Below are positions 1 through 23,087 of a DNA stretch of 32,000 nt, piece after piece. Below the pieces are notes generated by a model. That model saw only the letters and a list, made by a program, of their open reading frames with translations. It had not been told where the DNA came from and made no database searches. Source of the stretch: Candidatus Omnitrophota bacterium (lineage in GTDB: Bacteria; Omnitrophota; Gorgyraeia; Duberdicusellales; 4484-171); contig JAIPHU010000003.1 in assembly GCA_021735045.1 (NCBI GenBank), forward strand, positions 42,476-74,475, written 5' to 3'. The translations under genes and the position numbers were made by a program. Position 1 is the stretch's first letter. Every line of letters starts with the position of its first letter.

Positions 1-339
1 CAGGTGCCCAAGCAAGCGTGAATCCATGTAATTAAGTGCTTTGCCATTGGAGAAATTGAAAATTACTCTAGCCCGTTCTTGGCTTTCTCCATAATGAAGC
101 CAGCCGGTCATTCTTAAATGAATTACTAAAAATTTTTCTTTTTTTAATTTAAGAATCAAAAGCTTGCCCCGCCTGATCACCTTTTCAACTTCTTGACCAA
201 TAATTTCTTTTTTAAATTGGGGCCAGGATGGTTCTTTTATCACTTCAACTCTGTTAATTTTTACTGCAGTAATTTCTTCCCCGAGAACATTTTCGGCTAA
301 TTCTCTTTTGATTGTCTCGACTTCTGGTAATTCTGGCAT
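1..339 (-). CDS. mutM: formamidopyrimidine-DNA glycosylase (Fpg/MutM), N-terminal 113 codons; continues beyond the window edge
   Basis: Absent from the ORF track because it is open at the edge. My reverse-strand translation from the ATG (337-339) reads MPELPEVETIKRELAENVLGEEITAVKINRVEV...FLVIHLRMTGWLHYGE...YMDSRLLGHL. The PELPEVE N-terminus and HLxMTG are Fpg hallmarks. AAGGA lies 9 nt upstream. Confidence 0.85.
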   Translation of the reverse strand, partial: MPELPEVETIKRELAENVLGEEITAVKINRVEVIKEPSWPQFKKEIIGQEVEKVIRRGKLLILKLKKEKFLVIHLRMTGWLHYGESQERARVIFNFSNGKALNYMDSRLLGHL

Positions 340-472
340 AGCTTTTTATCCTTTATTTTATTCTTTGTATCAAATTATTTTCTTTTTTATATAGATAACG
401 TCGGATCCAATATTATTATTGATTAAGTTTTGCTTCGCAAAAATTGGATGCGACTTCTGGTAATTCTGGCAT
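318..472 (-). repeat. 22-bp perfect direct repeat (318-339 = 451-472; first 22 nt of mutM) bracketing a 111-bp structured non-coding insert (340-450)
   Basis: CGACTTCTGGTAATTCTGGCAT occurs twice on the plus strand, 133 bp apart. The insert folds (minus strand) into the stem 454-443/411-400 with one C:C mismatch, plus the hairpin TTTTGC-GAA-GCAAAA (442-428). The upstream copy keeps an RBS (GGAGAG) and ATG but runs into a stop after 18 codons. Confidence 0.85.
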
Positions 473-500
473 TATACTCTCCAGGTTAACTCAATTTATT

Positions 501-584
501 ATCAACGAATATACGAATCAATTACGAATTTACAAATAGAAATAAATATTCGTATATTCGTAGGAGATTGGTAAATTCGTTGAT
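501..584 (-). repeat. 84-bp repeat element, copy A (promoter-like cassette with six ACGAAT/ATTCGT hexamers); partner at 26373-26459 in inverted orientation
   Basis: The reverse complement aligns by eye to 26373-26459 at roughly 90 percent identity; the promoter-proximal 37 nt are identical. Minus-strand -35 TTGTAA (535-530), 16-nt spacer, -10 TATATT (513-508). Terminal inverted decamers ATCAACGAAT / ATTCGTTGAT. Confidence 0.8.
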
Positions 585-595
585 TAATTCTTCTC

Positions 596-988
596 CTAAT
601 TAATTATCTTCAGATAGACTTTCCTGTCCCGCGGGCCATCAAACTCACAGAAATATATTCCCTGCCAAGTTCCTAAAACAATCTCATTGTTTTCTATAAT
701 CAACTCTAGGGTAGGCCCCAAAAGTGAGCTTTTTATATGAGAATCAGAGTTGCCTTCTGCATGCCGATAACCTTTATCGGCAGGAACAAGCTGATTTAGA
801 TAATTTATGATATCCTCACAAACTGCCGGGTCCGCATTTTCATTTATAGTTAAAGCCGCAGTAGTATGAGCACAAGACAAAAGACAGATTCCTTTCTTTA
901 TCTGAGATTTTTTTATTATCTGTTTTGTTTCTGAACTGATATCAATAAGTTCATTCCTTTTTTTTGAACTAATATTTATTGTTTCCAT
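596..988 (-). CDS. YjbQ/UPF0047 family protein (secondary thiamine-phosphate synthase-type)
   Basis: 130-aa ORF. The pattern ...CLLSCAHTTAALTINENADP...GNSDSHIKSSLLGPT...GTWQGIYFCEFDGPR matches the family as I recall it. Confidence 0.75.
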   Translation of the reverse strand: METINISSKKRNELIDISSETKQIIKKSQIKKGICLLSCAHTTAALTINENADPAVCEDIINYLNQLVPADKGYRHAEGNSDSHIKSSLLGPTLELIIENNEIVLGTWQGIYFCEFDGPRDRKVYLKIIN

Positions 989-1008
989 AAAAAACCCCCT
1001 TGGTATAT

Positions 1009-1245
1009 CTAGTTAAAAAAGATAAAATAACTCAACAAAACTATAATTAATATAAAAACCGTCCAATAGACCCAACTGGATCTTTTCCCAAAATCTACCG
1101 GCTTGCCACAGTAGTAACAGTTGATAGCATCTTTTGGGATTGGTTTATGGCAGTAGGGACACTCTACTAGTTGATTGTAATCTAGGCCCTCTTTTTGTTC
1201 AGTTATTTGTTTATAGTCAAAAAAATCTTCCGGCATCTTTATCAA
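1009..1245 (-). CDS. small zinc-ribbon protein with C-terminal transmembrane helix
   Basis: 78-aa ORF with CPYC...17 aa...CYYC, followed by a hydrophobic tail WVYWTVFILIIVLLSYFIFF. Confidence 0.5.
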   Translation of the reverse strand: MIKMPEDFFDYKQITEQKEGLDYNQLVECPYCHKPIPKDAINCYYCGKPVDFGKRSSWVYWTVFILIIVLLSYFIFFN

Positions 1246-1262
1246 TCAGCTTAGTTTATTTT

Positions 1263-1775
1263 TTAGGTTAAATGCTTATGGATACCCTTGTATTCTGTGG
1301 TTTTTTCTACTCTAAAAAATACAAGTTGAGCTATGCGCGCATTTTCTTTTATCTTAACCCCAGCTGGATTTTGCACAGATAAAAGAAACTCCCCCTTACC
1401 TGAAAAACCTGCATCCCAGACCCCATGAGAACTAAAGCACCCCATGCGCAAAATAGAGGTACGGCTAAAAGCCAATGCCGTTAAATTATTAGGTAAATTT
1501 ATTATCTCGTTAGTTTTAATTTTATAAGAACCCGGAACAAGGCTCCACCAACCATATTTATCTTCTGGATTTTTTTTCTCAAGAACAACTTCCTCTCCTT
1601 CCGGAATTATTCTTTCATCATTAGAAAAATCCAATGACCCAGCCTTTAGGAAAGTTGACAATTTAGCTACAGTTAAATCAACTCCGTTTGGAGTAAGCTG
1701 TTTTTCTAGGTTTATATAGTTTTCGATTAGATCTTTTCCTTCAATTAAATCTCTGATTTCTTTTTTGTTTAACAT
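1263..1775 (-). CDS. dCTP deaminase/dUTPase superfamily protein (archaeal-type dUTPase-like)
   Basis: 170-aa ORF. ...NGVDLTV..., SRTSILRMG...GVWDAGFSGKGEFLL...IAQLVF resemble the trimeric dUTPase/Dcd motifs. Its 5' end overlaps the upstream gene by 35 nt. Confidence 0.65.
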   Translation of the reverse strand: MLNKKEIRDLIEGKDLIENYINLEKQLTPNGVDLTVAKLSTFLKAGSLDFSNDERIIPEGEEVVLEKKNPEDKYGWWSLVPGSYKIKTNEIINLPNNLTALAFSRTSILRMGCFSSHGVWDAGFSGKGEFLLSVQNPAGVKIKENARIAQLVFFRVEKTTEYKGIHKHLT

Positions 1776-2211
1776 GATATTTTATCTCCTCTATTGCATC
1801 TTTAGGTGTTTCTTTTTTTATTATTCCTTCTATATCCCAGCTATCTATTCCTACCACAATTTTACCTTCCGATAAAGCAAAGCCTATTTCTGAAAGAGTA
1901 CCATATTTCCCATCAACTGCTACTATATAATCTGCCGACCTAACTACCAAGGTATTACGCACAAAGCCAAGGCCCGTAGGTATTTTAATATCTAGATAAT
2001 TGTTTGCTTCTTTGCCGTCATAAGAAGGCAAAAGCCCCACAGTAACTCCTCCTGACTGTTTTGCCCCACAACAAGCTGCTTCCATAACCCCTGGGCCTCC
2101 ACCACAAACTAGAACCCAGTTTTCTTGAGCAATAAGCTCCCCAACAACTTTTGCTGTTTTGTAAGCTTTTTCTGAACACTTTGAACCACCGATTACTGCT
2201 ATATTTAACAT
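1741..2211 (-). CDS. LOG/TIGR00725-family (SLOG fold) protein
   Basis: 156-aa ORF: IAVIGGS...VLVCGGGPGVMEAACCGAKQSGGVTVGLLP...RNTLVVRSADYIVAVDGKYGTLSEIGFAL, the typical LOG/TIGR00725 pattern. Confidence 0.75.
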   Translation of the reverse strand: MLNIAVIGGSKCSEKAYKTAKVVGELIAQENWVLVCGGGPGVMEAACCGAKQSGGVTVGLLPSYDGKEANNYLDIKIPTGLGFVRNTLVVRSADYIVAVDGKYGTLSEIGFALSEGKIVVGIDSWDIEGIIKKETPKDAIEEIKYHVKQKRNQRFN

Positions 2212-2341
2212 GAGTTTTAACTTTTATCCTTTATCCTTTATCCTTGATAGTGTCCCTGGCAGCCCCGACGCTCGCACTCCGTGTTCGGTCGGGAGATTCG
2301 GCCTACATTTCTGGCTCCATCCTCCCCTTTTTACATTTATC

Positions 2342-2413
2342 TACCCCTTAGGAGAGTCGAACTCCTATCTCAGGCTCCGGAGGCCTGCGCTTTATCCATT
2401 AAGCTAAAGGGGC
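2342..2413 (-). tRNA. tRNA-Arg (anticodon CCG)
   Basis: Manual cloverleaf: acceptor GCCCCTT/AAGGGGT (G1:U72 wobble), D arm GCTT..AAGC, anticodon stem CAGGC/GCCTG with loop CTCCGGA, T arm AGGAG-TTCGACT-CTCCT, discriminator A. No encoded CCA. Confidence 0.85.
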
Positions 2414-2504
2414 AAGATATCCATTGAGCTACAGGGACTAAGTTGAAATAAACTTAGCAACTACTAAATCTTACCGCAATTAGGGTATTTTGTAAATTTA
2501 TCTG

Positions 2505-3773
2505 CTAAAATTGTTTTCCTTTATGAAAAACTTTTTCGATTTTTCCTTGCAGTTTTCGGCCGAGAAAACAAGAATTTTTGGATTTAGAATAAAAGTTTTC
2601 TTTAGAGACTACCCACTCTTTATCCGGATTAAAAATAATTAAATCTGCATCGGCTCCAACTTTAATTGATTTTTTCTTTATTTCTAAAATTTCAGCAGGG
2701 TTGGTTATAAACTTATCTAGCAAACTCTGCCAGCTTAAAAATTTCTTTTTAATAAGTTCTGTAAATGCCACCGAAAGCTCTGTTTCCAGCCCAATTGTCC
2801 CGAACTCAGCTCTTTGAAATTCAATATCTTTTTCATTCTCTGTATGAGGAGCATGATCAGAAGCAATTACATCAATTACGCCATCAGCTAAAGCTTGTTT
2901 GATTGCTAAAATATCCTCTTGGTTGCGTAAGGGTGGATTGATTTTTTTGTTGGTATCAAAACTCCAAAGATCTTTTTCCGATAATGAAAAATAGTGGGGA
3001 GCAGTTTCTGCGGTAACCTGAACTCCTTTCTTTTTAGCTTTCGCAATAATCTCTATGGATTCCTTACAGCTTACGTGAGCAATGTGTATTTTTGCATCAG
3101 CTTTTTTTGCTAACTTTATGTCTCTAGCTACTCTCATAAACTCGGCTGACTTTGGTATTCCCCGCAAACCAAGACAAGTCGAACTAAAGCCTAGATTGAG
3201 CACTCCTCTTTTTGATAAAGTTTTATCCTCGCTGTGGCAGATTACAGTAATATTGTTTTTCTTAGCTTGCTTTAAAGCTTCTAGCATCAGTTGGCTATTA
3301 TCCACTGAATCACCATCATCGGTTATAGCTTTTATCCCTTCTTTAGCTAATCTTTCTATATCACCAAGCTCTTTGCCTTTTCTGCCTTTGGTTATGGCTG
3401 CAGAAAGAAAAACATCAACAAAAGCTTCTTGTTTAATCTTTCTTTTTAGGTATTTTACTGTTTCTCTGGAATCTATCGCTGGTTCTGTATTTGGCATAGC
3501 TAAAACCGAACCTATTCCGCCGGCTAAAGCAGCTCTGGTACCAGTTTTAATCTCTTCTTTATCTTCCCTGCCTGGTTCACGTAAGTGAACATGCATATCT
3601 ATAAGCATCGGCAATACTATCTTTCCTGCCGCATCTATAATTTTATCAATCCCTTCTGGATTAATAGCTGTTGCGATATCAATTATCTTGCCCGCCTCGA
3701 TTAAAATATCTTCTTTCCTAGATCGGCCGGTACCGGCCCTAACTACTTTTGCATTTTTAATCAAAGTTTTCAT
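2505..3773 (-). CDS. pyrC: dihydroorotase
   Basis: 422-aa ORF with DMHVHLREPG, HVS and ASDHAPH motifs. Overlaps pyrB by 4 nt in a pyr operon. Confidence 0.9.
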   Translation of the reverse strand: MKTLIKNAKVVRAGTGRSRKEDILIEAGKIIDIATAINPEGIDKIIDAAGKIVLPMLIDMHVHLREPGREDKEEIKTGTRAALAGGIGSVLAMPNTEPAIDSRETVKYLKRKIKQEAFVDVFLSAAITKGRKGKELGDIERLAKEGIKAITDDGDSVDNSQLMLEALKQAKKNNITVICHSEDKTLSKRGVLNLGFSSTCLGLRGIPKSAEFMRVARDIKLAKKADAKIHIAHVSCKESIEIIAKAKKKGVQVTAETAPHYFSLSEKDLWSFDTNKKINPPLRNQEDILAIKQALADGVIDVIASDHAPHTENEKDIEFQRAEFGTIGLETELSVAFTELIKKKFLSWQSLLDKFITNPAEILEIKKKSIKVGADADLIIFNPDKEWVVSKENFYSKSKNSCFLGRKLQGKIEKVFHKGKQF

Positions 3774-4720
3774 CTTTTTCTTGCTCCTGATACAAGATAT
3801 AAAACAGCCATTCGAACCGCGATTCCGTTGGTAACTTGGTCTAAAATAACAGAGTTTGGCCCATCAGCAACTTCAGAAGATATCTCAATACCTCGATTGA
3901 TCGGCCCCGGATGCATAACTATTATATTTTTATTTGTTTTTTCGATACGTTCTTGGGTAATGCCATAATTTTTAAAATAGTCTAGCTTTTGAGGAAACGC
4001 TGTATTTTCATCCCTTTCAAACTGCATTCTTAATACATTTACTGCATCAGATTGAGATAAAGCTTTATCTATATTTGAAGTTACAGAAACACCCATTTTT
4101 TCAATTTCAGCTGGAATAAGCATGGCCGGGGCACAGACTATAACTTTTGCTCCTAATTTAGTTAAGCCCCAAATATTTGAACGGGCAACCCGAGAATGAG
4201 CAATATCTCCAACAATAGTCACAGTCAGCCCCTCAATTTTACCCCTTTTTTCAACTAAAGTAAAAAGATCAAGCAAGGCTTGAGTAGGGTGCTCATGCCA
4301 ACCGTCTCCAGCATTAACCACACCTATATTTAGATGCCGGGAAAGCATCGCTGCTGCACCAGCTGCATTATGCCTTACTACGATTATATCTGCTTTTAAG
4401 GCTTCAATATTTCTACCTGTGTCATTAAGGGTCTCATTTTTCCGTACGCTTGAATATTCAGCTGCTATATTTATTACGTCTGCTGAAAGCCTTTTTGCCG
4501 CTACCTCAAAAGAGACTCTTGTTCTGGTAGAAGGTTCATAAAAAAGATTGACTATGGTTTTACCCCGTAAGGCCGGAACTTTTTTAATTTGGCGCGTAGT
4601 AACTTCTTTAAAAGATGCGGCCGTCTGGAGCAAGATCTCAATCTCTTCTTTTTTTAAATCCCCCAATCCCAGCAAATCTTTCTTGTACCAGTTTATAGCC
4701 TCTTTTCTTTTTTTGCTCAT
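3770..4720 (-). CDS. pyrB: aspartate carbamoyltransferase catalytic subunit
   Basis: 316-aa ORF with FYEPSTRTR, HPTQALLD and HPGP motifs. Confidence 0.92.
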   Translation of the reverse strand: MSKKRKEAINWYKKDLLGLGDLKKEEIEILLQTAASFKEVTTRQIKKVPALRGKTIVNLFYEPSTRTRVSFEVAAKRLSADVINIAAEYSSVRKNETLNDTGRNIEALKADIIVVRHNAAGAAAMLSRHLNIGVVNAGDGWHEHPTQALLDLFTLVEKRGKIEGLTVTIVGDIAHSRVARSNIWGLTKLGAKVIVCAPAMLIPAEIEKMGVSVTSNIDKALSQSDAVNVLRMQFERDENTAFPQKLDYFKNYGITQERIEKTNKNIIVMHPGPINRGIEISSEVADGPNSVILDQVTNGIAVRMAVLYLVSGARKR

Positions 4721-5265: not shown

Positions 5266-5269
5266 GGTA

Positions 5270-5300: not shown

Positions 5301-5310
5301 GGCTAGCATA

Positions 5311-5339: not shown

Positions 5340-5368
5340 GGACAAAAACCGATGCTTCCTAAGCCTTA

Positions 5369-15005: not shown

Positions 15006-16340
15006 TTATAAGTTTTTAATTTCCTGTGCAAGGCTGTTAACTGTTGTTTTTAACTTCTCATCTTTAGTTAAAGCCTTTCTTATTTTTTTACAAGCATAAA
15101 GAATATTAGTGTGATGTTTACCCCCAAAAAAACCCCCAATTTCAGGGAGAGAACTCTCGGTCAACTCTCTTGTTAAATACATTGCAACCTGACGAGGCAA
15201 GACCAAAGTTTTACTTCTTTTAGCTTTTTTTAAATCTTCCTTGTCAACTCCATAAAAACAACTAACTTTATCCAAAATAATTTCCGGAGTAACTCTTGCG
15301 CTGATTTCGCGAACCATATCTTTTAAGATTCCTTTAGCTAGATCAACAGTGATTGTTTTATTTTCTATTAAGGAATAAGCTATAATTCTAACTAAAGCCC
15401 CCTCTAGTTCGCGGATATTTGAAGAGATATTTTCAGCAATAAAGCGGATAACTTGGGGGTCAACCTTTACTGCTTCGTTTTCTAGTTTTTTCTCTAAAAT
15501 TGCGACTCTGGTTTCATAATCCGGAGTTTGGATGTCAACAACCAAGCCCCAGTTAAAGCGGGAAACCAATCTTTCTTCTAAATCTGGAATTTCTTTCGGG
15601 GGGCGATCCGAAGAGACAACGATTTGTTTATGGTGGTCGTATAAGACATTAAACGTATGAAAAAACTCTTCCTGGGAAGCCTCTTTCCCCGAAAGAAATT
15701 GGATATCATCGATTAAAAGAATATCTATGTCTCGATATTTTTTTCTAAACTTATCCGTGTTTCTTTGCCGAATAGAAAGAATAAGGTCGTTAGCGAAGCT
15801 TTCTGAAGAAATATACTTAACTTTTGTTTGTGGGTTTAAAGAAAGCACATAATTAGAAATTGCTTGCATCAGGTGAGTTTTACCTAAACCAACTCCTCCA
15901 TATATAAAGATCGGGTTGTACGACTTTCCTGGGGCTCGGGCAACAGCTAAAGATGCAGCATGCGCCATTCGGTTTGAAGAGCCAACTACGAAATTATCAA
16001 AAGTAAAGCGGGGGTTGAGCCGCAAGGATGTTTGGGTTTTTTCTCCAAAGCTTTTATTAAAAGAACGAAAGATTTTTGTAGTTTTACTTTTAAGGATACC
16101 AGGATTTACCCGGAACTCTATATTTATTTTCTTTCCCTCAACTTCTTGGGAAATCTCTTCTATAGAAGAAAGATAGTTGCTTTCTACCCAGTTTTTAAAA
16201 AAACTGTCAGGAGCCTCTAAAACCAGATTTCCTTTAGAAGCTTCTTTGAGCTGTAAAGGAGATATCCAAGTATCAAAAGAAGTTTCTCCTAAACGTTCTT
16301 TAAGCTTTTTTTTACAATTTTCCCAAATATCTTGTTTCAT
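15006..16340 (-). CDS. dnaA: chromosomal replication initiator protein DnaA
   Basis: 444-aa ORF with Walker A GGVGLGKTHL, LLIDDIQFLSGKE and a C-terminal DNA-binding domain (...VAMYLTRELT...IGGFFGGKHHTNILYA). Confidence 0.95.
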   Translation of the reverse strand: MKQDIWENCKKKLKERLGETSFDTWISPLQLKEASKGNLVLEAPDSFFKNWVESNYLSSIEEISQEVEGKKINIEFRVNPGILKSKTTKIFRSFNKSFGEKTQTSLRLNPRFTFDNFVVGSSNRMAHAASLAVARAPGKSYNPIFIYGGVGLGKTHLMQAISNYVLSLNPQTKVKYISSESFANDLILSIRQRNTDKFRKKYRDIDILLIDDIQFLSGKEASQEEFFHTFNVLYDHHKQIVVSSDRPPKEIPDLEERLVSRFNWGLVVDIQTPDYETRVAILEKKLENEAVKVDPQVIRFIAENISSNIRELEGALVRIIAYSLIENKTITVDLAKGILKDMVREISARVTPEIILDKVSCFYGVDKEDLKKAKRSKTLVLPRQVAMYLTRELTESSLPEIGGFFGGKHHTNILYACKKIRKALTKDEKLKTTVNSLAQEIKNL

Positions 16341-16364
16341 TGACGATTTAACAAAGTTAACAAC

Positions 16365-16373
16365 TTATTCACA
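16365..16373 (+). promoter_or_regulatory. single DnaA-box-like 9-mer TTATTCACA (one mismatch to TTATCCACA) in the dnaA leader
   Basis: Read directly. It is the only close match I found in the dnaA-rpmH spacer. Confidence 0.35.
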
Positions 16374-16435
16374 TTTTTAAGGAATGATTATTTCCTGCGC
16401 GGTACCAGAAGTAACCTATTGATTTTGAATAACCA

Positions 16436-16463
16436 ATTATACCTCAATAAAATATCTTTGCAA
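16436..16463 (-). promoter_or_regulatory. sigma70-like promoter facing dnaA
   Basis: Minus strand: TTGCAA (16463-16458), 16 nt, TATAAT (16441-16436). Confidence 0.45.
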
Positions 16464-16474
16464 CTTTTTTGTAG

Positions 16475-16502
16475 TTGACACCTAATTATTTTATGCTACA
16501 AT
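16475..16502 (+). promoter_or_regulatory. sigma70-like promoter facing rpmH
   Basis: TTGACA (16475-16480), 16 nt, TACAAT (16497-16502). Divergent from the dnaA promoter. Confidence 0.5.
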
Positions 16503-16540
16503 TTCAACTTACCTGATAGTATATTGAATTTAAAAAAGGC

Positions 16541-16740
16541 GATGAGCTATATAAGTATAGTTAATTTTTGATAAAAAGATAACTAAAAGGTGCAAAATGT
16601 ATGCGTTTTTTGCCGCAGGCAAACATTCTCTAGCTATTGCCTAAGAGAATATAACGCATCCATGTAATGTATTAGACTCACAAACAGTGATGAGCTATAT
16701 AAGTATAGTTAATTTTTGATAAAAAGATAACTAAAAGGTG
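16541..16740 (+). repeat. 52-bp perfect direct repeat (16541-16592 = 16689-16740; rpmH leader including SD) bracketing a 96-bp structured insert (16593-16688)
   Basis: GATGAGCTATATAAGTATAGTTAATTTTTGATAAAAAGATAACTAAAAGGTG occurs twice, 148 bp apart. The insert folds into the stem 16597-16607/16653-16663 with one T:C mismatch, hairpin TTTGCC-GCA-GGCAAA (16609-16623) and hairpin 16625-16650. Confidence 0.85.
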
Positions 16741-16747
16741 AAAAAAC

Positions 16748-16885
16748 ATGAAAAAAAATCTAAAAACACCTAGTAATTTAAAAGGGAAAAGAAAACACGG
16801 TTTTCGTAAGAGGATGAGCTCGAAAAACGGGAAAAAAATAGTAAATCAACGGCGAAGAAAAGGGCGTAAAAAAATATCTGTATGA
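16748..16885 (+). CDS. rpmH: 50S ribosomal protein L34
   Basis: Below the ORF-track size cutoff. My translation is [45 protein letters not shown] (45 aa). The HGFRKRM..GR motif is L34-specific. Overlaps yidD in ATGA. Confidence 0.9.
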
Positions 16886-17090: not shown

Positions 17091-18536
17091 ATGGAAAAAA
17101 GAACAGTTTTTGCTTTTTTATTGTTGATTGGCTTTTTTTTGGTTTGGTCTCAGTTTGCTCCAAAGAAGGTTCCACAAACGCTTGAAGGACAAGAAGTTGT
17201 AAGCGAAAGCGTGCAAACGACCCCCCAAGAGCCTCAGCCGAAAATATCGGAAGCCGGAGAAAAAAGCCTTCCTGCAGAAGGTGTCGCCCTCAAAGAAATA
17301 AAAATAAATAACTACTATATTACCTATTCTCCTCAGGGTGGATATATTCAGTCCATTGCTTTAAATAAACCAACTAATATTCTTCCTTTTCAGAACTTAG
17401 GGTACCAATCAGCGAAAAAGGACATAAACTATAAAGTTAATGTTGGGCAAGACAGCATTTCTTTTGTTGAGGGCAGTTCCCCTCCCAAAAAATATGTTTT
17501 TAGTGAGGATACCATAAAGATAGAAAATGTTGCCGGCTCCCCCATTTTATTGTTTTCATTTTCTTTAAATTCAGGAACTTCACATATAAGTAAAAGGTAT
17601 TTTGAATCATTTTATAGTAAAGATAAATCTATCCAAAGAACCCATCCTAAAAAAGTTAAACAAGAAGTTGAAAAAAGAGTAGAATTTGCCGGGGCTAGGA
17701 GTAGGTATTATGCAATTAGTTTATTACCCGATCTTTATAATATTGAATGGAGCAAAACTAAAGAAAGAACAAATCTTTACCTAAATAATCCTTCCTCCAC
17801 CATATTGCTTTATCTTGGGCCGCAAATTACCGACAATATGGAAACATATGGGTTGGCGGGTATAGTTTATTATGGGTTTTGGCATTTTTTGGCGGTAGCA
17901 ATTATAAAAATACTATATTTTTTCTATAGTTTTCTGCATAATTGGGGGCTTAGTATAATCTTTCTTTCTTTTTCTACTTATGCTGTGCTGTTTCCTTTTA
18001 CTTCAAAAAGTACCAAAGCAATGAAAAAGATGCAAGAGATTCAGCCCTTAATGCAAGAGTTAAAAGAAAAACATAAAGATAATCCTCAAAAGATGCAAAA
18101 AGAGACTGTTGAGCTTTATAAAAAGCATAAAGTAAACCCTTTGGGCGGGTGTCTTCCTCTTTTGTTTCAATTCCCGATAATTATTGCTTTTTATCAAGTA
18201 GTCTTTAGGTTTAGCCGGCTTCAAGGAGCTTCTTTTCTTTGGATTCAGGATCTATCCTTGCCGGATCGGTTGTTCCATTTGCCTTTTACGATTCCTGTTG
18301 TAGGTGTTGAATATTTTAATCTTCTTCCTATTCTAGTAATGATTTTAGGAATTGTTCAACAACACATAACAGCTTCTTCGTCAAATCCTCAACAAAAAAA
18401 GATAGGTTTATTTATGGGAGTATTTATTGGAATAATATTTTATAAGTTTCCTTCTGCATTAGTTTTGTATTGGTTTGTGCAAAATCTACTCACTCTTATC
18501 TACCAAGTCCGTTTGAAAAAAGCCCGCACCACCTAA
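17091..18536 (+). CDS. yidC: membrane protein insertase YidC
   Basis: 481-aa ORF with an N-terminal TM helix, a periplasmic domain and the 60-kDa insertase core (...KMQEIQPLMQELKEKHKDNPQKMQKETVELYKKHKVNPLGGCLP...). Confidence 0.9.
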   Translation: MEKRTVFAFLLLIGFFLVWSQFAPKKVPQTLEGQEVVSESVQTTPQEPQPKISEAGEKSLPAEGVALKEIKINNYYITYSPQGGYIQSIALNKPTNILPFQNLGYQSAKKDINYKVNVGQDSISFVEGSSPPKKYVFSEDTIKIENVAGSPILLFSFSLNSGTSHISKRYFESFYSKDKSIQRTHPKKVKQEVEKRVEFAGARSRYYAISLLPDLYNIEWSKTKERTNLYLNNPSSTILLYLGPQITDNMETYGLAGIVYYGFWHFLAVAIIKILYFFYSFLHNWGLSIIFLSFSTYAVLFPFTSKSTKAMKKMQEIQPLMQELKEKHKDNPQKMQKETVELYKKHKVNPLGGCLPLLFQFPIIIAFYQVVFRFSRLQGASFLWIQDLSLPDRLFHLPFTIPVVGVEYFNLLPILVMILGIVQQHITASSSNPQQKKIGLFMGVFIGIIFYKFPSALVLYWFVQNLLTLIYQVRLKKARTT

Positions 18537-18584
18537 AAAAGATCACTTAAAATCAAAAAACGCTTATTTGGCAAGAGGTATTTA

Positions 18585-18602
18585 CGTTTTCACGTGAAAA
18601 CG
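18585..18602. promoter_or_regulatory. parS-like site 1 (perfect 18-bp palindrome CGTTTTCACGTGAAAACG)
   Basis: The central 12 nt TTTCACGTGAAA are identical to the canonical parS TGTTTCACGTGAAACA. Lies upstream of parAB. Confidence 0.65.
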
Positions 18603-18714
18603 CTGCAACCCCTTGATTCTATTAACATTTTCTATTTTTACGTGTATCTTTCCAGCTATTAAAGAGGGCTGAAAGATCCATGTGGGAACCTCTACACAAC
18701 TAGAAAGAAGGAGG

Positions 18715-18730
18715 CGTTTTCACGTGAAAA
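18715..18730. promoter_or_regulatory. parS-like site 2 (CGTTTTCACGTGAAAA)
   Basis: Same core, TTTCACGTGAAA. Confidence 0.6.
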
Positions 18731-18796
18731 TTTTCTTGCTTCTAGATATATGAAAATTTCCACGTGGATATTCTCCTTTTCTTTAGGTGGTGGAGA

Positions 18797-18813
18797 ATAT
18801 ACACGTGAAAACG
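18797..18813. promoter_or_regulatory. parS-like half-conserved site 3 (ATATACACGTGAAAACG)
   Basis: The right half is identical to site 1 and the left half is degenerate. It is part of a 37-bp repeat (18591-18627 vs 18802-18838). Confidence 0.45.
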
Positions 18814-18956
18814 CTAGAACCCCTTGATTTTATTAACAATTCTCATTTTGGTTGTTATTTTTTTTGAGTAATTAAATAAAAATGGTTGCAATTCTCATCA
18901 AATAGTATTAAAATAAAGAAAATTGAAATATTTATATATTATTGATAACAAAAGAT

Positions 18957-19748
18957 ATGGGTAAAATAATTGGTATTTGTAATCAAAAAGGTGGGACCGG
19001 CAAAACAACAACTGCCATTAACTTTAGTTCTTTTTTAGGGCTGGCAGGGGAAAAGACTCTTCTTGTGGACATGGATCCCCAGGGCAATGCTTCTTCTGGA
19101 GTTGGCATAGATCCTCAAGGTAAAAAATCAGCTTATGAGGTAATTTCAGGAGATGCCCAGGTAGAGGAAGCTATTTATTCTACAGATTGGCCTAATTTAT
19201 CTGTTATGCCCTCAGATATATCTCTTACTGGTGGAGAAGTTGAGTTGGTTTCTTTGAACCAGCGGGAACTACTGCTGCGGCAAAGTCTTGAGAAGATTAA
19301 AGACGAGTATTCCTATATAGTTATTGACGCCCCTCCTTCTTTAGGAGTACTTACTGTTAATGTGTTGTCTGCCGCTGACAGTTTAATTATACCAGTTCAA
19401 TGTGAGTATTATGCACTAGAAGGAGTTTCGAAATTGATCGGCACGATTGAGTTAATAAAAGAAAGGCTTAATCCAGGCTTAGAAATTGAAGGGGTTTTGT
19501 TGACTATGGCAGATTTTCGAACCCGGCTTACTTTACAAGTAATAGAAGAAGTAAGAAACTATTTTAAAAATAAAGCTTTTAGCATTATTGTTCCCAGAAA
19601 CGTGAAGTTAGCTGAAGCTCCTAGTTTTGGCAAACCTATCTATTTTTATGAATCCGGTTGTGTGGGGGCGAAAGCTTACTTAGAGTTGACTAATGAAGTT
19701 GTAGGGCAAGTTCAAGAAATAAATAACTTTGTTAAGCAGAGAGGTTGA
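18957..19748 (+). CDS. parA: chromosome partitioning ATPase ParA/Soj
   Basis: Deviant Walker A NQKGGTGKTT. I prefer the ATG at 18957 (MGKIIGICNQKGG) over the track's TTG at 18942. Confidence 0.9.
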   Translation: MGKIIGICNQKGGTGKTTTAINFSSFLGLAGEKTLLVDMDPQGNASSGVGIDPQGKKSAYEVISGDAQVEEAIYSTDWPNLSVMPSDISLTGGEVELVSLNQRELLLRQSLEKIKDEYSYIVIDAPPSLGVLTVNVLSAADSLIIPVQCEYYALEGVSKLIGTIELIKERLNPGLEIEGVLLTMADFRTRLTLQVIEEVRNYFKNKAFSIIVPRNVKLAEAPSFGKPIYFYESGCVGAKAYLELTNEVVGQVQEINNFVKQRG

Positions 19749-19750
19749 TT

Positions 19751-20572
19751 ATGGGTAAAAAAGTATTAGGAAAAGGATTAGACGCTCTTATTCCCAAAAA
19801 GAAAAATTCTGGGGGGGACCAATTTGTTTATCTTCCCGTGGAACAAGTCGAGCCTAATAAATTTCAGCCGCGTAAAGGCATGAACCAGAAGGACTTAGCT
19901 GAACTAACCCAATCAGTTAAAGAAAAAGGTTTTATTCAGCCAATATTAGCGCGGGATATTAAGGGAGGAAAGTATGAAGTTGTGGCTGGAGGAAGAAGGT
20001 TAGAAGCCGCTAAGTTGTTGGGCATCAAGGAGATACCCGCAGTAGTCAGAGACCTAGACAATAAAGATTCCTTTATCGCCGCAATAGTCGAAAATCTACA
20101 AAGAAAAAATCTTAATCCAATTGAAGAAGCCCAAGCTCTTACCCGCCTTAGGGATGAGTTTAATTTTTCTTTAGATGAAATTGCCAAATTTATCAGTAAA
20201 GACAAGACAACAGTGGTAAATACAATTCGTTTGCTTAAACTTCCAAAAAAGATTAAATCGGCTTTAGAAGAGAATCTTATTAACCGGAGCCAGGCCAGGA
20301 CAATACTTTCTTTTAAAAGCAAGATTCAGCAAGAAAAAATATTTTATAAGATTCTTCACAAAGGGCTTACAGTAAGAGATGTGGAGAAACAAGCTGTCAG
20401 GAAAAACAAAAAAACAAAAGTTGATCCTTTTGTTGAAGAAGCTGAGCAGCAGTTACAAAAAAGCCTTGGGACAAAGGTAAGAATCATTAGTTCAAAAAAT
20501 AAAAAAGGCAAGATTATTCTTCATTATTATAATTTAAATGATTTTGAAAGAATCATAAAAAGAATTAGCTAA
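19751..20572 (+). CDS. parB: chromosome partitioning protein ParB/Spo0J
   Basis: LGKGLDALI, QPRK, the GGRRLEAAKLLG box and an HTH region. ATG at 19751 is preceded by GAGAGG. Confidence 0.9.
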   Translation: MGKKVLGKGLDALIPKKKNSGGDQFVYLPVEQVEPNKFQPRKGMNQKDLAELTQSVKEKGFIQPILARDIKGGKYEVVAGGRRLEAAKLLGIKEIPAVVRDLDNKDSFIAAIVENLQRKNLNPIEEAQALTRLRDEFNFSLDEIAKFISKDKTTVVNTIRLLKLPKKIKSALEENLINRSQARTILSFKSKIQQEKIFYKILHKGLTVRDVEKQAVRKNKKTKVDPFVEEAEQQLQKSLGTKVRIISSKNKKGKIILHYYNLNDFERIIKRIS

Positions 20573-20598
20573 AAACAATAAGGCACAGAGGGGGAATT

Positions 20599-21105
20599 AT
20601 GGACCAAGAGGCAACTTTAGTAATTATAAAACCAGATGGTTTAAAAAAGTCTTTAACCGGAAATATATTGACGCGGCTTTCGGAAGCAAAGCTAAAAATT
20701 ATTGGGGCAAAAGTTGTAAAAGTTGGCAATGACTTAGCTAATACCCATTATCGACACCTAAAAGATAAACCATTTTTTAAAGAACTAATTAAATATATCA
20801 GTGGCAAGCTGCACGGAGAAAACAGGGTTATGCCTTTGGTTTATTGGGGGCAGGCAGCAATTGGAAAAGTCCGCCGTATTGCTGGAGCTACAAATCCGGA
20901 GGAAGCCGATCCGATTTCAATAAGAGGGGCTTACGGAAGGATACTTACCACCGGCCTTTATGAAAATGTAGTTCATGCATCAAGCGATCCCGACGAAGCT
21001 GAACGCGAGATCAAGCTTTGGTTTAACCCGGAGGAGATAGTTTATGATCTGTATCCTGCTAAAGAAGAAAAAAGCAACAATCAAAACCGGAGAGTTTGGC
21101 AATGA
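20599..21105 (+). CDS. ndk: nucleoside-diphosphate kinase
   Basis: 168-aa ORF with LVIIKPDG, TNP..A.P.SIRG and NVVHASSD (catalytic His). Confidence 0.88.
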   Translation: MDQEATLVIIKPDGLKKSLTGNILTRLSEAKLKIIGAKVVKVGNDLANTHYRHLKDKPFFKELIKYISGKLHGENRVMPLVYWGQAAIGKVRRIAGATNPEEADPISIRGAYGRILTTGLYENVVHASSDPDEAEREIKLWFNPEEIVYDLYPAKEEKSNNQNRRVWQ

Positions 21106-21884
21106 GGTCAATGACAGCTTATTCTGAAGCCCAAGAAAAAACGAAGAATACAAAAACAAAAATTATTCTAAGATCCCTAAATTATAAATATCTTGATATT
21201 TCTGTTTACAATCTTCCTCAGCAACTTTTGGTTCTAGAAGAAAAAATAAAAGAACAAATAAAAAGAAGTATAACCAGAGGAAAAGTCGAAGTTTATTTTT
21301 ATCAAAGCAGTAAAAGCAAAGAAAGATTTTCTATAAATAAGGAAAAGTTCAGTAATTATGTAAAACAAATTAAATCTTTAGCTAAGCAATTTGACTTAGA
21401 AAAAAAGTTATCCCCGTTAGAGATATTAAACTTACCGGGCGTAGTTTCTGGTGGGAAAAAGGGAAATATTTCAAAGACGCAACTATCGTCGGCAGTTAAA
21501 AAATCTTTGAATAAATTGATTAGCTTTAAAAAAGAAAAAGGTAAAGTAATAGAAAAGGAAATAGCTAAAAATCTTTCTTTGCTTGAGAGCAATATTACTA
21601 AAATTGGGAAAACTAAAAGAAGGCCCTCAAAAGAAACAGATGGAAAAGAGGATATAGACGAAGAACTTTCTTTGATTGGATTTTATTCTCAAAAGGTAAA
21701 AAAGATAATAGCTAAGAAAAAGCAAATACGTAAAGGTAAGGCAATTGATTTTTTGACCCAAGAAATTTTGCGGGAATTAAACGCAGCGTCTAGTAAAACT
21801 AGACAGAAAAAAATAGCAACTTTAATAGTAGAGGCGAAAAATTATTTAGGCCGTATTCGTGAACAAGCACAAAATATAGAATGA
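21102..21884 (+). CDS. yicC: YicC-family stress-induced protein
   Basis: MRSMTAY N-terminus and C-terminal DFLTQEILRELNAASSK. The ATG at 21102 overlaps the ndk stop (ATGA). Confidence 0.75.
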   Translation: MRSMTAYSEAQEKTKNTKTKIILRSLNYKYLDISVYNLPQQLLVLEEKIKEQIKRSITRGKVEVYFYQSSKSKERFSINKEKFSNYVKQIKSLAKQFDLEKKLSPLEILNLPGVVSGGKKGNISKTQLSSAVKKSLNKLISFKKEKGKVIEKEIAKNLSLLESNITKIGKTKRRPSKETDGKEDIDEELSLIGFYSQKVKKIIAKKKQIRKGKAIDFLTQEILRELNAASSKTRQKKIATLIVEAKNYLGRIREQAQNIE

Positions 21885-22450
21885 AAAAACCAAAAATTTT
21901 TATTTTATCTGGACCCGGTGGGGTAGGCAAAACCACGTTAGTTAAACACCTTTTCCGTAAAAAGGCAATAAAAAATGTTTTGCTAAAATCTATAACCGTT
22001 ACAACTAGGGACAAAAGGCCCCAAGAAAGAGACGGTAAAGACTATTTTTTTGTAAGCAAAGAAGAGTTCTTGTACCTAAAAAAAAGAAAGTTTTTTTTAG
22101 AAAACGAAAAAGTATTAGATAATTATTATGGGACACCTAAGCTTTATCTAAAAATGGCTAAAGTTAAAAATAAAGACCTTCTTTTATGTATAGACGTTAA
22201 AGGAGGAATGGTTTTAAAAAAGCGGTATAAAAGTAGAGCAACTAGTATCTTTATCAGTGTTGCTAAAAAACGGGAGTTATATAATCGAATGAAAAAAAGG
22301 GAAGAAACAAAAGATGTTATTGATAAAAGAATTAAACTTGCAAAAAAAGAGTTGCAATTTTCTAAAAAATATGATTATTTAATACAAAACAAAAATATAA
22401 ATACAACAGCTAGAAAAATAAAAGATGTGATATTAAAGCATCAGAAATAA
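21881..22450 (+). CDS. gmk: guanylate kinase
   Basis: P-loop SGPGGVGKTT, TTR..R..E..G.DYFF. Canonical yicC-gmk-rpoZ order. Confidence 0.85.
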   Translation: MKKPKIFILSGPGGVGKTTLVKHLFRKKAIKNVLLKSITVTTRDKRPQERDGKDYFFVSKEEFLYLKKRKFFLENEKVLDNYYGTPKLYLKMAKVKNKDLLLCIDVKGGMVLKKRYKSRATSIFISVAKKRELYNRMKKREETKDVIDKRIKLAKKELQFSKKYDYLIQNKNINTTARKIKDVILKHQK

Positions 22451-22467
22451 AATTAAGAGGAGGCAAG

Positions 22468-22767
22468 ATGTCCGGAGATTATATACCGAGAGAAAAATTA
22501 TTGGGAGCCACAAGAGGATCTATTTATAAATTAGCGGTTTTAGCTGCAAAACGAGCCATGATACTTGCAGGGGGAGAGAAGCCTTTAGTTGAGAAAAGAA
22601 CCGAAAAGTTATTAGATATAGCTTTAGAAGAAATCAAAGACAAGAAAATAGAGGAGTTTAAAGGGAAAAAGAAGAAAGAAACAAAAACAGCTAAAACTGA
22701 TAAAAAACCAAAAGAAGAAAAAGAAGATACAAAAAAAGCCAAAAAAGAAGGATCTTCTAAAAAGTAA
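22468..22767 (+). CDS. rpoZ: DNA-directed RNA polymerase subunit omega with Lys-rich C-terminal tail
   Basis: ...SIYKLAVLAAKRAMIL... is the omega core. Follows gmk. RBS GAGGAGG upstream. Confidence 0.75.
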   Translation: MSGDYIPREKLLGATRGSIYKLAVLAAKRAMILAGGEKPLVEKRTEKLLDIALEEIKDKKIEEFKGKKKKETKTAKTDKKPKEEKEDTKKAKKEGSSKK

Positions 22768-22778
22768 TGAGTCAAATC

Positions 22779-22850
22779 GGCGCGGTAGCCAAGTGGCAAG
22801 GCGGTGGTTTGCAAAACCATTATTCACCGGTTCAAATCCGGTCCGCGCCT
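22779..22850 (+). tRNA. tRNA-Cys (anticodon GCA)
   Basis: Acceptor GGCGCGG/CCGCGCC, anticodon stem GTGGT/ACCAT with loop TTGCAAA, T arm ACCGG-TTCAAAT-CCGGT, discriminator T. Confidence 0.88.
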
Positions 22851-22871
22851 TTGTTGGTTCATAGTTCTTTC

Positions 22872-22901
22872 TGCATAGCGCAAAGCGCTTAGCGCTATGC
22901 A
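22872..22901 (+). terminator. 30-nt near-perfect palindrome TGCATAGCGC-A-AAGCGCTT-A-GCGCTATGCA after tRNA-Cys
   Basis: Read directly. It shares its 5' arm TGCATAGCGC with the hairpin at 23167-23189. Confidence 0.4.
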
Positions 22902-22930
22902 CTATGCTCTAAGTTAATAGGTCAAAAGTA

Positions 22931-23087
22931 AAACTTATTGCCGGGGTGTTGGCAAGAACTTCTTGCCGAAGGCAAGCTAGTTTGCTTATACGTGTACAGT
23001 TCTTCCCAAAGATTTTGGAGATAAAACAAAACTATTGCTAATTTGAAAACTAATAAATTAAGGATAAACTTATTGCCGGGGTGTTGG
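22931..23087 (+). repeat. 22-bp perfect direct repeat (22931-22952 = 23066-23087; 9 nt of leader plus first 13 nt of tRNA-Leu) bracketing a 113-bp structured insert (22953-23065)
   Basis: AAACTTATTGCCGGGGTGTTGG occurs twice, 135 bp apart. The insert folds into the stem 22949-22960/22998-23009 with one C:C mismatch and the hairpin CTTGCC-GAA-GGCAAG (22962-22976). Confidence 0.85.

Follow-up and report, generated by a model that had tools for sequence, protein, structure and literature searches.

IS200/IS605 insertion sequences and the non-autonomous PATEs, the substrates of Y1 HUH transposases, are recognised through a DNA hairpin and not through terminal inverted repeats. IS200/IS605 elements act as single-stranded DNA on the lagging-strand template and insert directly 3' of a short target; an internal 'guide' of the element forms base pairs with this target. 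Integron attC sites (57-141 nt) also function as folded single-stranded DNA and conserve structure over sequence; each is an imperfect palindrome in which unpaired bases are conserved and the terminal structure varies. Long target duplications of variable length (8-514 bp) are known from the bacterial insertion sequences IS1634 and IS1549, for which there is no accepted mechanism (PMC2266710). At the level of short motifs, CCGAAGG and GCGAAGC form the hyperstable DNA mini-hairpin that is also part of the ssiA priming signal; the hairpin promoters of phage N4 contain related mini-hairpins (PMC13037366).

Here we describe a small non-coding module that matches neither a described mobile-element family nor a described RNA family. 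The window, a 32,000-nt stretch of a Candidatus Omnitrophota genome bin, holds three modules, at mutM, rpmH and tRNA-Leu. The original prediction had proposed three folds with flanking direct repeats at these genes, and all were recovered at the predicted positions, with repeat spacings of 133, 148 and 135, respectively. An upstream copy of the gene start (A') precedes the module, and an intact leader and gene start (A) stands 3' of it.

At mutM (minus strand), A' (451-472) repeats the gene's first 22 nt (ATGCCAGAATTACCAGAAGTCG), and its final 4 nt, GTCG (454-451), pair with the 3' end of the module as the outer helix. The 51-nt module (400-450; identified by fold, descriptor and covariance model, 45 bits, E 8e-9) consists of a C mismatch, ATCCAAT, the hairpin TTTTGC-GAA-GCAAAA (442-428), which includes a GCGAAGC mini-hairpin, a 16-nt loop, ATTGGAT, C and CGAC. 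Native upstream sequence follows (340-399), the last ~24 nt of which (AAAG.TAAAATAAAGGATAAAAA, with the ribosome-binding site AAGGA) match the empty allele L137. The functional repeat copy (318-339), identical to A' at 22/22 positions, aligns with the mutM starts of L137 and L139, with the true start codon at 338-336. The module is missing from L137/L138 and L139/L140, which are empty alleles with clean junctions.

At rpmH (plus strand), a promoter-like conserved site (16475-16502) stands upstream of A' (16517-16599), which duplicates the entire ~85-nt leader up to and including a start ATG and is followed by the 64-nt module (16600-16663; fold, descriptor and covariance model, 76.5 bits). Its order is a T mismatch, ATGCGTT, T, the hairpin TTTGCC-GCA-GGCAAA (16609-16623), a second hairpin ATTCTCT...AGAGAAT, AACGCAT, C and CAT. 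The native leader (GTAATGTATTAGAC...; 16664-16750) then runs to the true start ATG (16748-16750) of the rpmH CDS (16748-16885). The direct repeat (16517-16597/16665-16745) agrees at 86% over 81 nt, with a perfect 52-nt core (16541-16592 in A') and a decayed 24 nt at the 5' end of A'. Orthologues of this module with compensatory changes are found in L083, L085/86 and L136; L131/132 are empty, and L131 has the leader directly 3' of the promoter with a clean junction.

At tRNA-Leu (plus strand), A' (22931-22952) comprises 8 leader nt and the first 14 nt of the gene, and its final 4 nt, TTGG, contribute the outer helix. The 57-nt module (22953-23009; fold, descriptor and covariance model, 55.6 bits) reads C mismatch, AAGAACT, T, the hairpin CTTGCC-GAA-GGCAAG (22962-22976) with its CCGAAGG mini-hairpin, a 21-nt loop, AGTTCTT, C and CCAA. 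It is followed by the native tRNA-Cys/tRNA-Leu spacer (23010-23065), homologous to that of the empty allele L083, with a promoter-like site TTGAAA-16-TAAACT at 23043-23070, and by the functional repeat copy (23066-23087; 22/22 with A') of the tRNA-Leu(taa) gene (23074-23161). Orthologous modules are present in L085/86 and L131/132, while L083/84 are empty with clean junctions. A' is shortest in L131 (16 nt), measures 22 nt in the window and reaches 75 nt in L085. In each of these three filled lineages the right junction of the module coincides with the native spacer start. The window and L085 have a further ~32 nt 3' of tRNA-Cys that are absent from the empty allele.

The original prediction had treated the A-rich sequence 3' of each module as a tail of the element. 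The sequence 'AAGGATAAA' is present, but it is native upstream sequence of mutM and tRNA-Leu, and the supposed tails are native leaders in the empty alleles L083 (tRNA-Leu), L131 (rpmH) and L137 (mutM). The proposed analogy of a structured 5' module with an A-rich tail to target-primed retroposition therefore fails; what is supported of the original interpretation is one structured family whose position varies among close relatives. A SINE-like retroposon, inserted by target-primed reverse transcription with variable duplications, would agree with the varying duplication lengths, with the constant gene orientation that co-transcription would require, and with one copy whose 26 nt of donor 3' flank resembles 3' transduction. 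We nevertheless consider it very improbable: besides the native tails, which largely refute it, clean copies are tailless (0 nt at L136 rpmH, 4 nt at L085 tRNA-Leu), reverse transcriptase is absent from all loci, the 5' end is precise with no 5' truncation series, and differences between repeat copies have no adenine-specific pattern.

The shared architecture of the three window inserts is far beyond chance. A descriptor (3-4 bp, 1-nt mismatch, 7 bp, 0-2 nt, 6-bp triloop hairpin, 10-44 nt, return) picks out the three window sites and nothing else in 64 kb (both strands) against an average of 0.01 in Markov shuffles; as it was derived from these same three copies, independent support comes from the extra copies that the descriptor and a covariance model of the module (R1) recover, in close relatives only. 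In total there are 14 distinct copies of one architecture, and the 11 beyond the window, all from close relatives, lie at rpmH, tRNA-Leu, gyrA (+54), yidD, rpmJ and one unnamed gene. The insertion point is 3 to 54 nt inside the gene and the orientation is always that of the downstream gene. R1 matches only known copies in 186 kb of clade loci (E 1e-8 to 1e-19) and nothing significantly in 1.41 Mb from 80 other genomes (two matches, E 9.5). As found here, the family is restricted to one small clade of uncultured Omnitrophota.

Across copies the module is 48-69 nt long, with a 7-bp closing helix and a conserved 6-bp hairpin (consensus YYNGCC-RMA-GGCNRR), in 11/14 copies with a GNA loop closed by C:G; the interior 3' of this hairpin is a variable loop or a second hairpin. 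The 3' end is the reverse complement of the final 3-4 target bases (GTCG/CGAC, TTGG/CCAA, ATG/CAT, GGTG/CACC), so that the target supplies the outer base pairs, as had been suggested for two loci and is true of every copy examined. The junction base is a mismatch (C, T or A opposite C or T) and never a Watson-Crick pair. Alignment A6 shows 99.3% pairing in the closing helix, with changes on both sides at 9 of 11 pairs, which bears out the predicted compensatory covariation, and 92.9% pairing in the first hairpin; sliding the 3' partner gives 34-40% pairing, and 0/500 shuffles reach the observed values. Wobble pairs number 3 among ~265 paired cells. The helices covary, and the three inserts belong to one structure-defined family, non-coding as predicted, with no ORF of any size within them. 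For compensatory changes in situ, palindrome-correcting template switching could be an alternative to selection. In single-strand folding the proposed structure is the minimum-energy fold at mutM (z -3.6) and rpmH (z -3.2); at tRNA-Leu it is so on the complementary strand (z -2.8), the sense strand favouring a competing hairpin. The module stems are shown, at the level of sequence comparison, to be under constraint: among tRNA-Leu orthologues, 0-1 of the 36 positions in stems and hairpin are substituted, compared with 14-26% in the adjacent spacer and 33-54% in the loop. In its conserved structure over unconserved sequence, imperfect palindrome, unpaired bases and variable terminal part the module resembles attC, but it is without R''/R' core sites (RYYYAAC/GTTRRRY), cassette ORFs, IntI and attI, and attC recombination gives no duplication.

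Constrained stems could also be expected of a cis-acting structured RNA in 5' leaders, selected by the host as an insulator, a stabiliser or a device sequestering a decoy start codon, and occasionally spread by duplication. This reading accommodates the invariable sense orientation within transcribed 5' regions, the base-pairing of the decoy start codon within the outer helix (ATG:CAT) in rpmH, gyrA, yidD and L104, and the retention of the rpmH copy, with compensatory changes, across lineages whose DnaA is 84-100% identical. We judge it quite unlikely, since the module has no Rfam match at E <= 10, its hosts are unrelated (a tRNA gene, gyrA codon 18, mutM, yidD, rpmH, rpmJ), its presence differs among relatives with DnaA 91-96% identical to the window's, no module is followed by a terminator-like tail, its helices hold hardly any wobble pairs and its triloop is a GNA loop of the DNA type (PMC13037366). 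On the same grounds of heterogeneous hosts, variable presence and near-pure Watson-Crick helices, the earlier alternative, local duplication of a module with a purely regulatory role as RNA, is a poor fit.

The position of the family is polymorphic among close relatives, and the family is mobile. Clean empty alleles exist at mutM, tRNA-Leu, rpmH and gyrA; the last is filled at the identical nucleotide in L085, L087 and L136 and empty in the window, L083, L088, L131 and L133. The L087 gyrA copy is an rpmH-type module with 26 nt of rpmH leader (z 5.85; 0/2000 shuffles), and with this donor flank it clearly shows that a module was copied from one locus to another. At gyrA, 26-37 nt 3' of the module are foreign and the duplication measures 56-66 nt. 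Could the tandem arrangement be an artefact of assembly or strain mixing? All sequences come from assembled metagenomes, and assemblies typically break at short repeats. Such an explanation is hardly credible: at least 8 mutually independent assemblies (NCBI and JGI) of different samples show the architecture with lineage-specific sequence, arrangements of the L083 and L085 types are seen again in several JGI samples, Logan contig L082 breaks exactly at a repeat boundary, repeat copies differ by single bases, and junctions are exact in empty and filled alleles. Like MITEs, Correia, RUP, REP/REPIN and Rickettsia palindromic elements and the mobile GC-cluster hairpins of yeast mitochondria, the module is small, non-coding and palindromic, and its positions, in or beside genes, vary among relatives. 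MITEs, however, have family-conserved terminal repeats and short duplications of fixed length, whereas the 11-12-bp terminal inverted repeat of the module differs between copies and includes target bases, its duplication is ~80 nt, and all copies occupy gene starts in sense orientation.

From the module end to the regenerated junction there are 78-93 nt at 7 loci, a spacing that stays constant although the gyrA duplication is only 56-66 nt, which is a point against the reading we favour below. The perfect repeats of 22, 52 and 22 nt in the original prediction are present, but they are not the full duplication, which is ~78-93 nt. The copies are identical at 82/82 positions at L136 rpmH, 74/75 at L085 tRNA-Leu, 64/66 at L087 gyrA and 55/56 at L085 gyrA. 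A' is often truncated and always terminates exactly at the module junction. At mutM and tRNA-Leu of the window no leader similarity remains upstream of the perfect 22 nt (z -0.6 and -0.05); that these two loci once had the full-length duplication is deduced from what other lineages carry. At tRNA-Leu and rpmH, modules are orthologous across lineages while the repeat copies share lineage-specific substitutions; the repeats thus evolve in concert, and their identity is no evidence of recent insertion. The long, variable duplication recalls the IS1634 family, but IS1634 and IS1549 are 1.5-2 kb long with a DDE transposase and terminal inverted repeats, show neither gene-start preference nor target pairing, and most family members make 5-6-bp repeats.

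These repeat dynamics raise an alternative in which the duplication is secondary: the module would first insert without duplication at the upstream edge of the leader, ~80 nt before the site complementary to its 3' end, and A' would be added and later refreshed by template switching, flap ligation or gene conversion anchored at the hairpin, in tracts of variable length reaching upstream from the module junction. It would explain why A' ends exactly at the junction yet is 16, 22 or 75 nt long at tRNA-Leu, why repeat identity falls abruptly from 100% to background, and why both repeats have lineage-specific substitutions in common despite orthologous modules; the tRNA-Leu right junction at the native spacer start and the extra sequence 3' of tRNA-Cys also suit it, the latter again counting against the favoured reading. 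On the other hand, it leaves the match of the module 3' end to a site ~80 nt downstream unaccounted for, complete duplications (82/82, 74/75) are equally well explained by target duplication, and at yidD (rpmH 3' end) and gyrA (gyrB-gyrA heptad spacer) the upstream copy is the native one, which fits insertion into a gene start. We regard secondary duplication as unlikely, though with a real chance of being correct.

Our preferred reading, held with roughly even confidence, is a clade-specific, non-autonomous, structure-defined non-coding insertion element that probably acts as single-stranded DNA. Insertion would duplicate ~65-90 nt of target, and the only insertions to survive would be those that lie so near a gene start that it is rebuilt; the upstream copy might later be truncated, or refreshed via recombination or replication slippage between repeats. 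We know of no established mechanism for an ~80-nt target duplication. The element may act as a hairpin on the lagging-strand template, with the target picked through 3-4 nt of base pairing and the enzyme supplied in trans. No gene for a transposase, recombinase or reverse transcriptase turned up when the window and ~190 kb of related loci were searched for a trans-acting enzyme, so the enzymatic step is purely inferred. In the window the strand with the hairpin serves as lagging-strand template to either side of oriC (GC-skew switch near 16 kb). Every copy of the family is in a gene co-oriented with replication, so that strand choice is inseparable from gene orientation. Hairpin, target-pairing 3' end and lagging-strand-template placement are IS200/IS605-like. 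Those elements, though, are moved by TnpA, of which no gene is seen with the module, and they insert without target duplication, with a hairpin at each end and one fixed tetra- or pentanucleotide target per family, whereas the module has a single hairpin, an ~80-nt duplication, and a guide and target that vary between copies. The same hyperstable C-GNA-G short-stem motif acts in single-stranded DNA of RSF1010 ssiA, the phage G4 origin and phage N4 early promoters (PMC13037366); these are fixed plasmid or phage sites, while the modules are dispersed chromosomal insertions flanked by duplications.

A repeat finder returned exactly the three gene-start direct repeats of the original prediction: 318-339/451-472 at mutM (22/22 identical, spacing 133, minus strand), 22931-22952/23066-23087 at tRNA-Leu (22/22, spacing 135, plus strand) and 16517-16597/16665-16745 at rpmH (81 nt at 86% with a perfect 52-nt core, spacing 148, plus strand). 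Each pair consists of an upstream copy, 5' of a hairpin insert (the module), and a functional copy, the regenerated gene start 3' of it. The helices and triloop hairpins read as claimed at all three loci, and the modules (48-69 nt, no ORF) encode no protein, as had been stated. The claimed structure is the minimum-energy single-strand fold at mutM and rpmH, and at tRNA-Leu for the complementary strand. A descriptor of this architecture matched exactly three times in the window, at these sites, while shuffled sequences averaged 0.01 matches. A MAFFT alignment of the three full units was out of register; our own descriptor scans and, later, a 14-copy alignment were used instead. The Logan contig L082 (SRR12088346), an independent assembly of the same organism, breaks at its position 1 exactly where the perfect 52-nt rpmH repeat begins, as expected from a graph branch at a true repeat.

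In gene direction, the structure runs from the last 3-4 target bases through one mismatched base, a 7-bp helix, 0-2 nt, a 6-bp hairpin (consensus YYNGCC-RMA-GGCNRR) and a variable loop (often a second hairpin) to the returning 7 nt, a C or T, and the reverse complement of the target. At the junction, the mismatch sets C, T or A against C or T, without a Watson-Crick pair in any copy. The outer 3-4 bp form between target end and module 3' end in 13/14 copies; in the metagenome contig L101 the module 3' end CACC matches GGTG at the true start of rpmJ, and the upstream copy there has decayed to GATG. The compensatory covariation predicted from the window copies is borne out by the 14-copy alignment, with the closing helix 99.3% paired and 9 of its 11 pairs changed on both sides. 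Hairpin-1 is 92.9% paired (slid controls 34-40%), and wobble pairs occupy only three cells of the alignment. Every copy is oriented like its downstream gene, at offsets of +3 (rpmH, rpmJ, yidD, L104), +14 (tRNA-Leu), +22 (mutM) and +54 (gyrA), with GTCG, TTGG, ATG or GTG as target ends.

The window is AT-rich (GC ~35%). Between dnaA (15006-16340, minus) and rpmH (16748-16885, plus), near 16 kb, there is a switch in the sign of GC skew, so the window spans the replication origin; genes on either side are directed away from it. Searching GTDB species representatives with DnaA gave best matches just 50-53% identical, and these loci, with no close relative among them, were used as a 1.4-Mb negative control. 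Loci of relatives, numbered with L, were fetched by protein look-ups (DnaA 84-96% identical to that of the window), with extra mutM-region loci from two of these lineages.

A check of the relatives for empty alleles, i.e., without the module, found them at mutM, rpmH and tRNA-Leu. At tRNA-Leu, L083/L084 are empty, and their 70-nt tRNA-Cys/tRNA-Leu spacer aligns with window positions 23010-23065, previously described as an A-rich tail. L085/L086 and L131/L132 are filled, with junctions (marked by slashes) identical to those of the window (...GTGTTGG/CAAGAACT ... AGTTCTTCCCAA/A); the upstream repeat measures 75 nt in L085 (74/75), 22 nt in the window and 16 nt in L131. At rpmH, L131/L132 are empty, and the leader (CTAATGATACATTAGACTCAC..., equal to the window 'tail') lies directly 3' of a promoter-like site. 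In the filled alleles (window, L083, L085, L136) the module stands directly 3' of the ATG in the leader's upstream copy, which is perfect over 82/82 nt in L136 and over 52 nt in the window (81 nt at 86%); L083 and L085 have a short, decayed version. At mutM, L137/138 and L139/140 are empty, and the final ~24 nt of this 'tail' in the window, AAGGATAAAAA among them, correspond to the native upstream sequence of L137 mutM. The A-rich 3' tail is thus not part of the element: the tails are homologous to the native leaders of empty alleles and so are host sequence, leaving only the 48-69-nt module as the insert proper. Clean copies have tails of just 0-4 nt. Transduction of the mutM tail from the tRNA-Leu leader was also considered and rejected, as the similarity is weak and was reached by 4/500 shuffles; a native AAGGATAAA promoter/RBS-like motif common to both explains it better.

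New copies were located by descriptor, then by sequence pattern and then by a covariance model of the module. They lie after Met18 (+54) of gyrA in L085/86, L087 and L136, between rpmH and yidD in L083/84, 5' of rpmJ in L101 and 5' of an unnamed gene in L104. Empty gyrA alleles occur in the window, L083, L088, L131 and L133; in these, a heptad-repeat spacer adjoins the gene. The gyrA copy of L087 consists of an rpmH-type module followed by 26 nt homologous to the beginning of the rpmH leader (z 5.85); it was thus copied, with donor flank, from the rpmH locus. Scanning 186 kb of the clade with the covariance model recovered all 15 copies, and the window yielded exactly three. In 1.41 Mb of other genomes, including four distant Omnitrophota, nothing was significant (two matches, E 9.5). 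Pattern scans gave two matches in IMG/VR, both due to chance, and 40 among metagenome contigs; apart from the genuine copies in L101 and L104, these have no returning strand. This contig collection did not return JGI contigs known from the protein look-ups. The element moves between gene starts.

Some spacers in these regions carry repeats of other kinds. The gyrB-gyrA spacer of relatives contains 1 to about 8 heptad units AGTTAGA/AGATAGA (L085 15150-15215; L088 5500-5555; L131 15160-15215), and that of the window is only 15 nt. GC-rich hairpin repeats of another type (GTCATTCTGAGG...CTCAGGATGAC, TCGCCGG..CCGGCGA) occur at L087 5590-5690 and 100-330 (minus) and at L133 1-300; they sit in the same intergenic spots and in L087 replace the 5' half of the rpmH module.

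Intact duplications measure 82, 75, 66 and 56 nt, and repeats over all copies range from 15 to 82 nt. The distance from module end to regenerated junction is 78-93 nt at seven loci, irrespective of the length of the perfect repeat: 82 nt at mutM, 82-88 nt at rpmH, 78-79 nt at tRNA-Leu, 79 nt at yidD, ~79 nt at rpmJ, 84 nt at L104 and 92-93 nt at gyrA. We take this to mean that the duplication originally spanned roughly 65-90 nt and that its upstream copy was later truncated or overwritten. Two observations limit this reading: the sequence 5' of the 22-nt repeat at window mutM and tRNA-Leu has no residual similarity to the missing part of the duplicate, and part of the gyrA interval is foreign sequence; a full-length upstream duplicate at window mutM and tRNA-Leu is extrapolated from other lineages. 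A duplication starting at the transcription start was rejected, since the L136 rpmH repeat begins ~60 nt past the promoter-like site and the L085 tRNA-Leu repeat takes in the promoter-like region.

The window, L085 and L131 carry orthologous tRNA-Leu modules, with common junctions and, between window and L131, recognisably homologous variable loops. Among them 0-1 of 36 stem and hairpin positions differ, against 14-26% in the adjoining spacer and 33-54% in the loop, and the module stems are under constraint. The repeats carry lineage-specific bases: TTATTG in both window copies of the tRNA-Leu repeat versus TTATCG in both L085 copies, and GGG as gyrA codon 2 in both L085 copies versus GAA in both L087 copies. 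The L136 rpmH leader cannot be aligned with that of the window, yet is repeated 82/82. The modules are thus orthologous while the repeats around them are near-identical and lineage-specific: the repeats evolve in concert, and a perfect repeat is not a young one. The likely route is hairpin-anchored slippage, unequal exchange or conversion, and precise loss through the same recombination accounts for the clean empty alleles.

Whether the module acts as DNA or RNA was considered from several sides. The loops are GNA closed by C:G in 11/14 copies; CCGAAGG and GCGAAGC are hyperstable DNA mini-hairpins described in the ssiA priming signal, and related mini-hairpins (GCGGAGC, or GAA-capped) occur in the hairpin promoters of phage N4 (PMC13037366). 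On either side of the origin, the hairpin strand of the window copies is the template for lagging-strand synthesis. Near-pure Watson-Crick helices, GNA loops and lagging-strand position point in favour of action as single-stranded DNA, while the strict sense orientation and the paired decoy start codon point in favour of RNA. These data do not separate the two; every host gene is co-oriented with replication. On the gene strand, no terminator-like site (GC-rich stem plus T/U tract) was found at any module. Rfam at gathering threshold reported only the seven window tRNAs, and at E <= 10 (ribozymes, leaders, riboswitches, sRNAs) no family overlapped the three window modules. Hammerhead, HDV-like, hatchet and other small ribozymes were rejected as module identity given the lack of an Rfam match and junction strands of 0-3 nt, too short for known catalytic cores.

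We compared the module with known systems. MITEs are set apart by conserved terminal inverted repeats and a short fixed target duplication, whereas here the 11-12-bp termini vary (GTCGCATCCAAT, TTGGCAAGAACT, ATGTATGCGTT), the outer 3-4 nt come from the host gene, repeats span 15-82 nt and junction spacing is 78-93 nt. With IS200/IS605 the module shares a hairpin and target pairing with an internal guide. Those elements make no target duplication, have hairpins at both ends and use one fixed target tetra- or pentanucleotide; compared with IS200/IS605-derived PATEs, the module has long direct repeats, a single hairpin and varying targets. Like attC sites, it keeps structure without sequence and has obligatory unpaired bases. 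The attC core sites R''/R' read RYYYAAC ... GTTRRRY and come with an adjacent cassette array or IntI, but the module helices (ATGCGCT/AGCGCAT, AAGAACT/AGTTCTT, others) lack AAC/GTT triplets in the right positions, and no integrase or integron context was found in the Pfam search of window ORFs or the gene tables of related loci. Resemblance of GCGCAT..ATAATGTAT to a dif/Xer site rests on helix bases that vary among copies, and was dismissed. The analogy to target-primed retroposition (SINEs) fails because the tail is host sequence. For a diversity-generating retroelement, the six repeat differences (C/T, A/G, C/A, A/G, T/C, T/A) give no strand-consistent adenine pattern and the fetched loci hold no reverse transcriptase. 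Long, variable duplications (8-514 bp, mechanism unknown) are described for IS1634 and IS1549 (PMC2266710). This is the only likeness: IS1634-family elements are 1.5-2 kb with a DDE transposase, the module 48-69 nt without ORF. A literature search found no described equivalent of the hairpin element.

An enzyme was sought in the same loci. No transposase was found in ~190 kb of clade loci and no reverse transcriptase in the fetched loci of the clade; Pfam searches of 10 unannotated window ORFs returned no mobility enzyme, and Pfam with gene tables gave no candidate in the window or the relatives' loci. The best description of the family is that of a non-autonomous, clade-specific hairpin element located inside an ~80-nt duplication of the gene 5' region. 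Of the mechanism first proposed, we retain a structure-defined family moving between gene starts and abandon the A-rich tail with its retroposon analogy.

Tentatively, and with more doubt than confidence, we consider a new class of hairpin-guided mobile DNA, combining 3'-end target pairing, single-stranded DNA insertion, a measured ~80-nt duplication and an enzyme acting in trans. Base pairing of the module's 3' end with 3-4 nt of the target would determine where the ~60-nt module inserts and would place the junction at a helix discontinuity. The module would go in as single-stranded DNA, at a replication fork or transcription bubble close to a gene start, and a measured ~80-nt duplication made on insertion would rebuild the promoter-proximal part of the gene. 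Unit-length circles are conceivable, because a unit of module plus ~80 nt can splint both ends on the module's 3' strand. The enzyme might be a recombinase, nuclease or primase that has escaped recognition, with its gene elsewhere in these Omnitrophota genomes. We know of no described mechanism in bacteria for an ~80-nt target duplication. If correct, this would be a small mobile element identified by fold and 3-4-nt target pairing, not by terminal repeats, whose insertion in essential genes (gyrA, rpmH, tRNA-Leu) is tolerated because the duplication rebuilds the gene start. It would also offer a natural case of programmable insertion near gene starts, with promoters and leaders duplicated and rewired, and a clean system for concerted evolution of short direct repeats around a hairpin. 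For annotation, gene callers will misread the decoy start codons and partial tRNA 5' ends to which these duplications give rise. The family is known only from one narrow uncultured clade.

Several further features of the window were noted. At 2415-2440 (minus), 5' of tRNA-Arg(ccg) (2341-2414), the 5' end of this tRNA recurs as a degenerate tandem copy (CCCTGTAGCTCAATGGATA), followed by TCTT and the real 5' end GCCCCTTTAGCTTAATGGATA, a duplicated gene start without module; in L137 and L139 tRNA-Arg directly adjoins pyrC. Within 2223-2335 (minus), AAGGATA stands three times in tandem directly 5' of ORF 1741-2211, and the ~85-nt stretch 5' of these units, downstream of tRNA-Arg, is unusually GC-rich for the genome, with no Rfam match. 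A long AT-rich palindrome at 499-586 (ACGAATATACGAAT ... ATTCGTATATTCGT), between yjbQ and the upstream mutM copy, is missing in L137 and L139 and gives weak symmetric Rfam noise on both strands. Related GC-rich palindromic motifs at 22873-22900 and 23168-23196 (GCATAGCGC..GCGCTATGC; GCATAGCGCTAGGCGCTAAGC) flank the tRNA-Leu unit, the first occupying the place of the 5' part of the 75-nt repeat of L085. In the yidC-parA interval, (G)TTTTCACGTGAAAA(C) occurs three times at 18585-18815, resembling parS sites (TGTTTCACGTGAAACA) clustered upstream of parAB, together with a 48-nt direct repeat (18591-18638/18802-18849). Finally, the dnaA-rpmH spacer (16341-16510; alignments A2 and A4) holds blocks conserved clade-wide, one of them DnaA-box-like (TTAACAAAGTTAACAA.TTATTCACA) and others divergent promoter-like sites, including TTGACA-16-TACAAT at 16475-16502.
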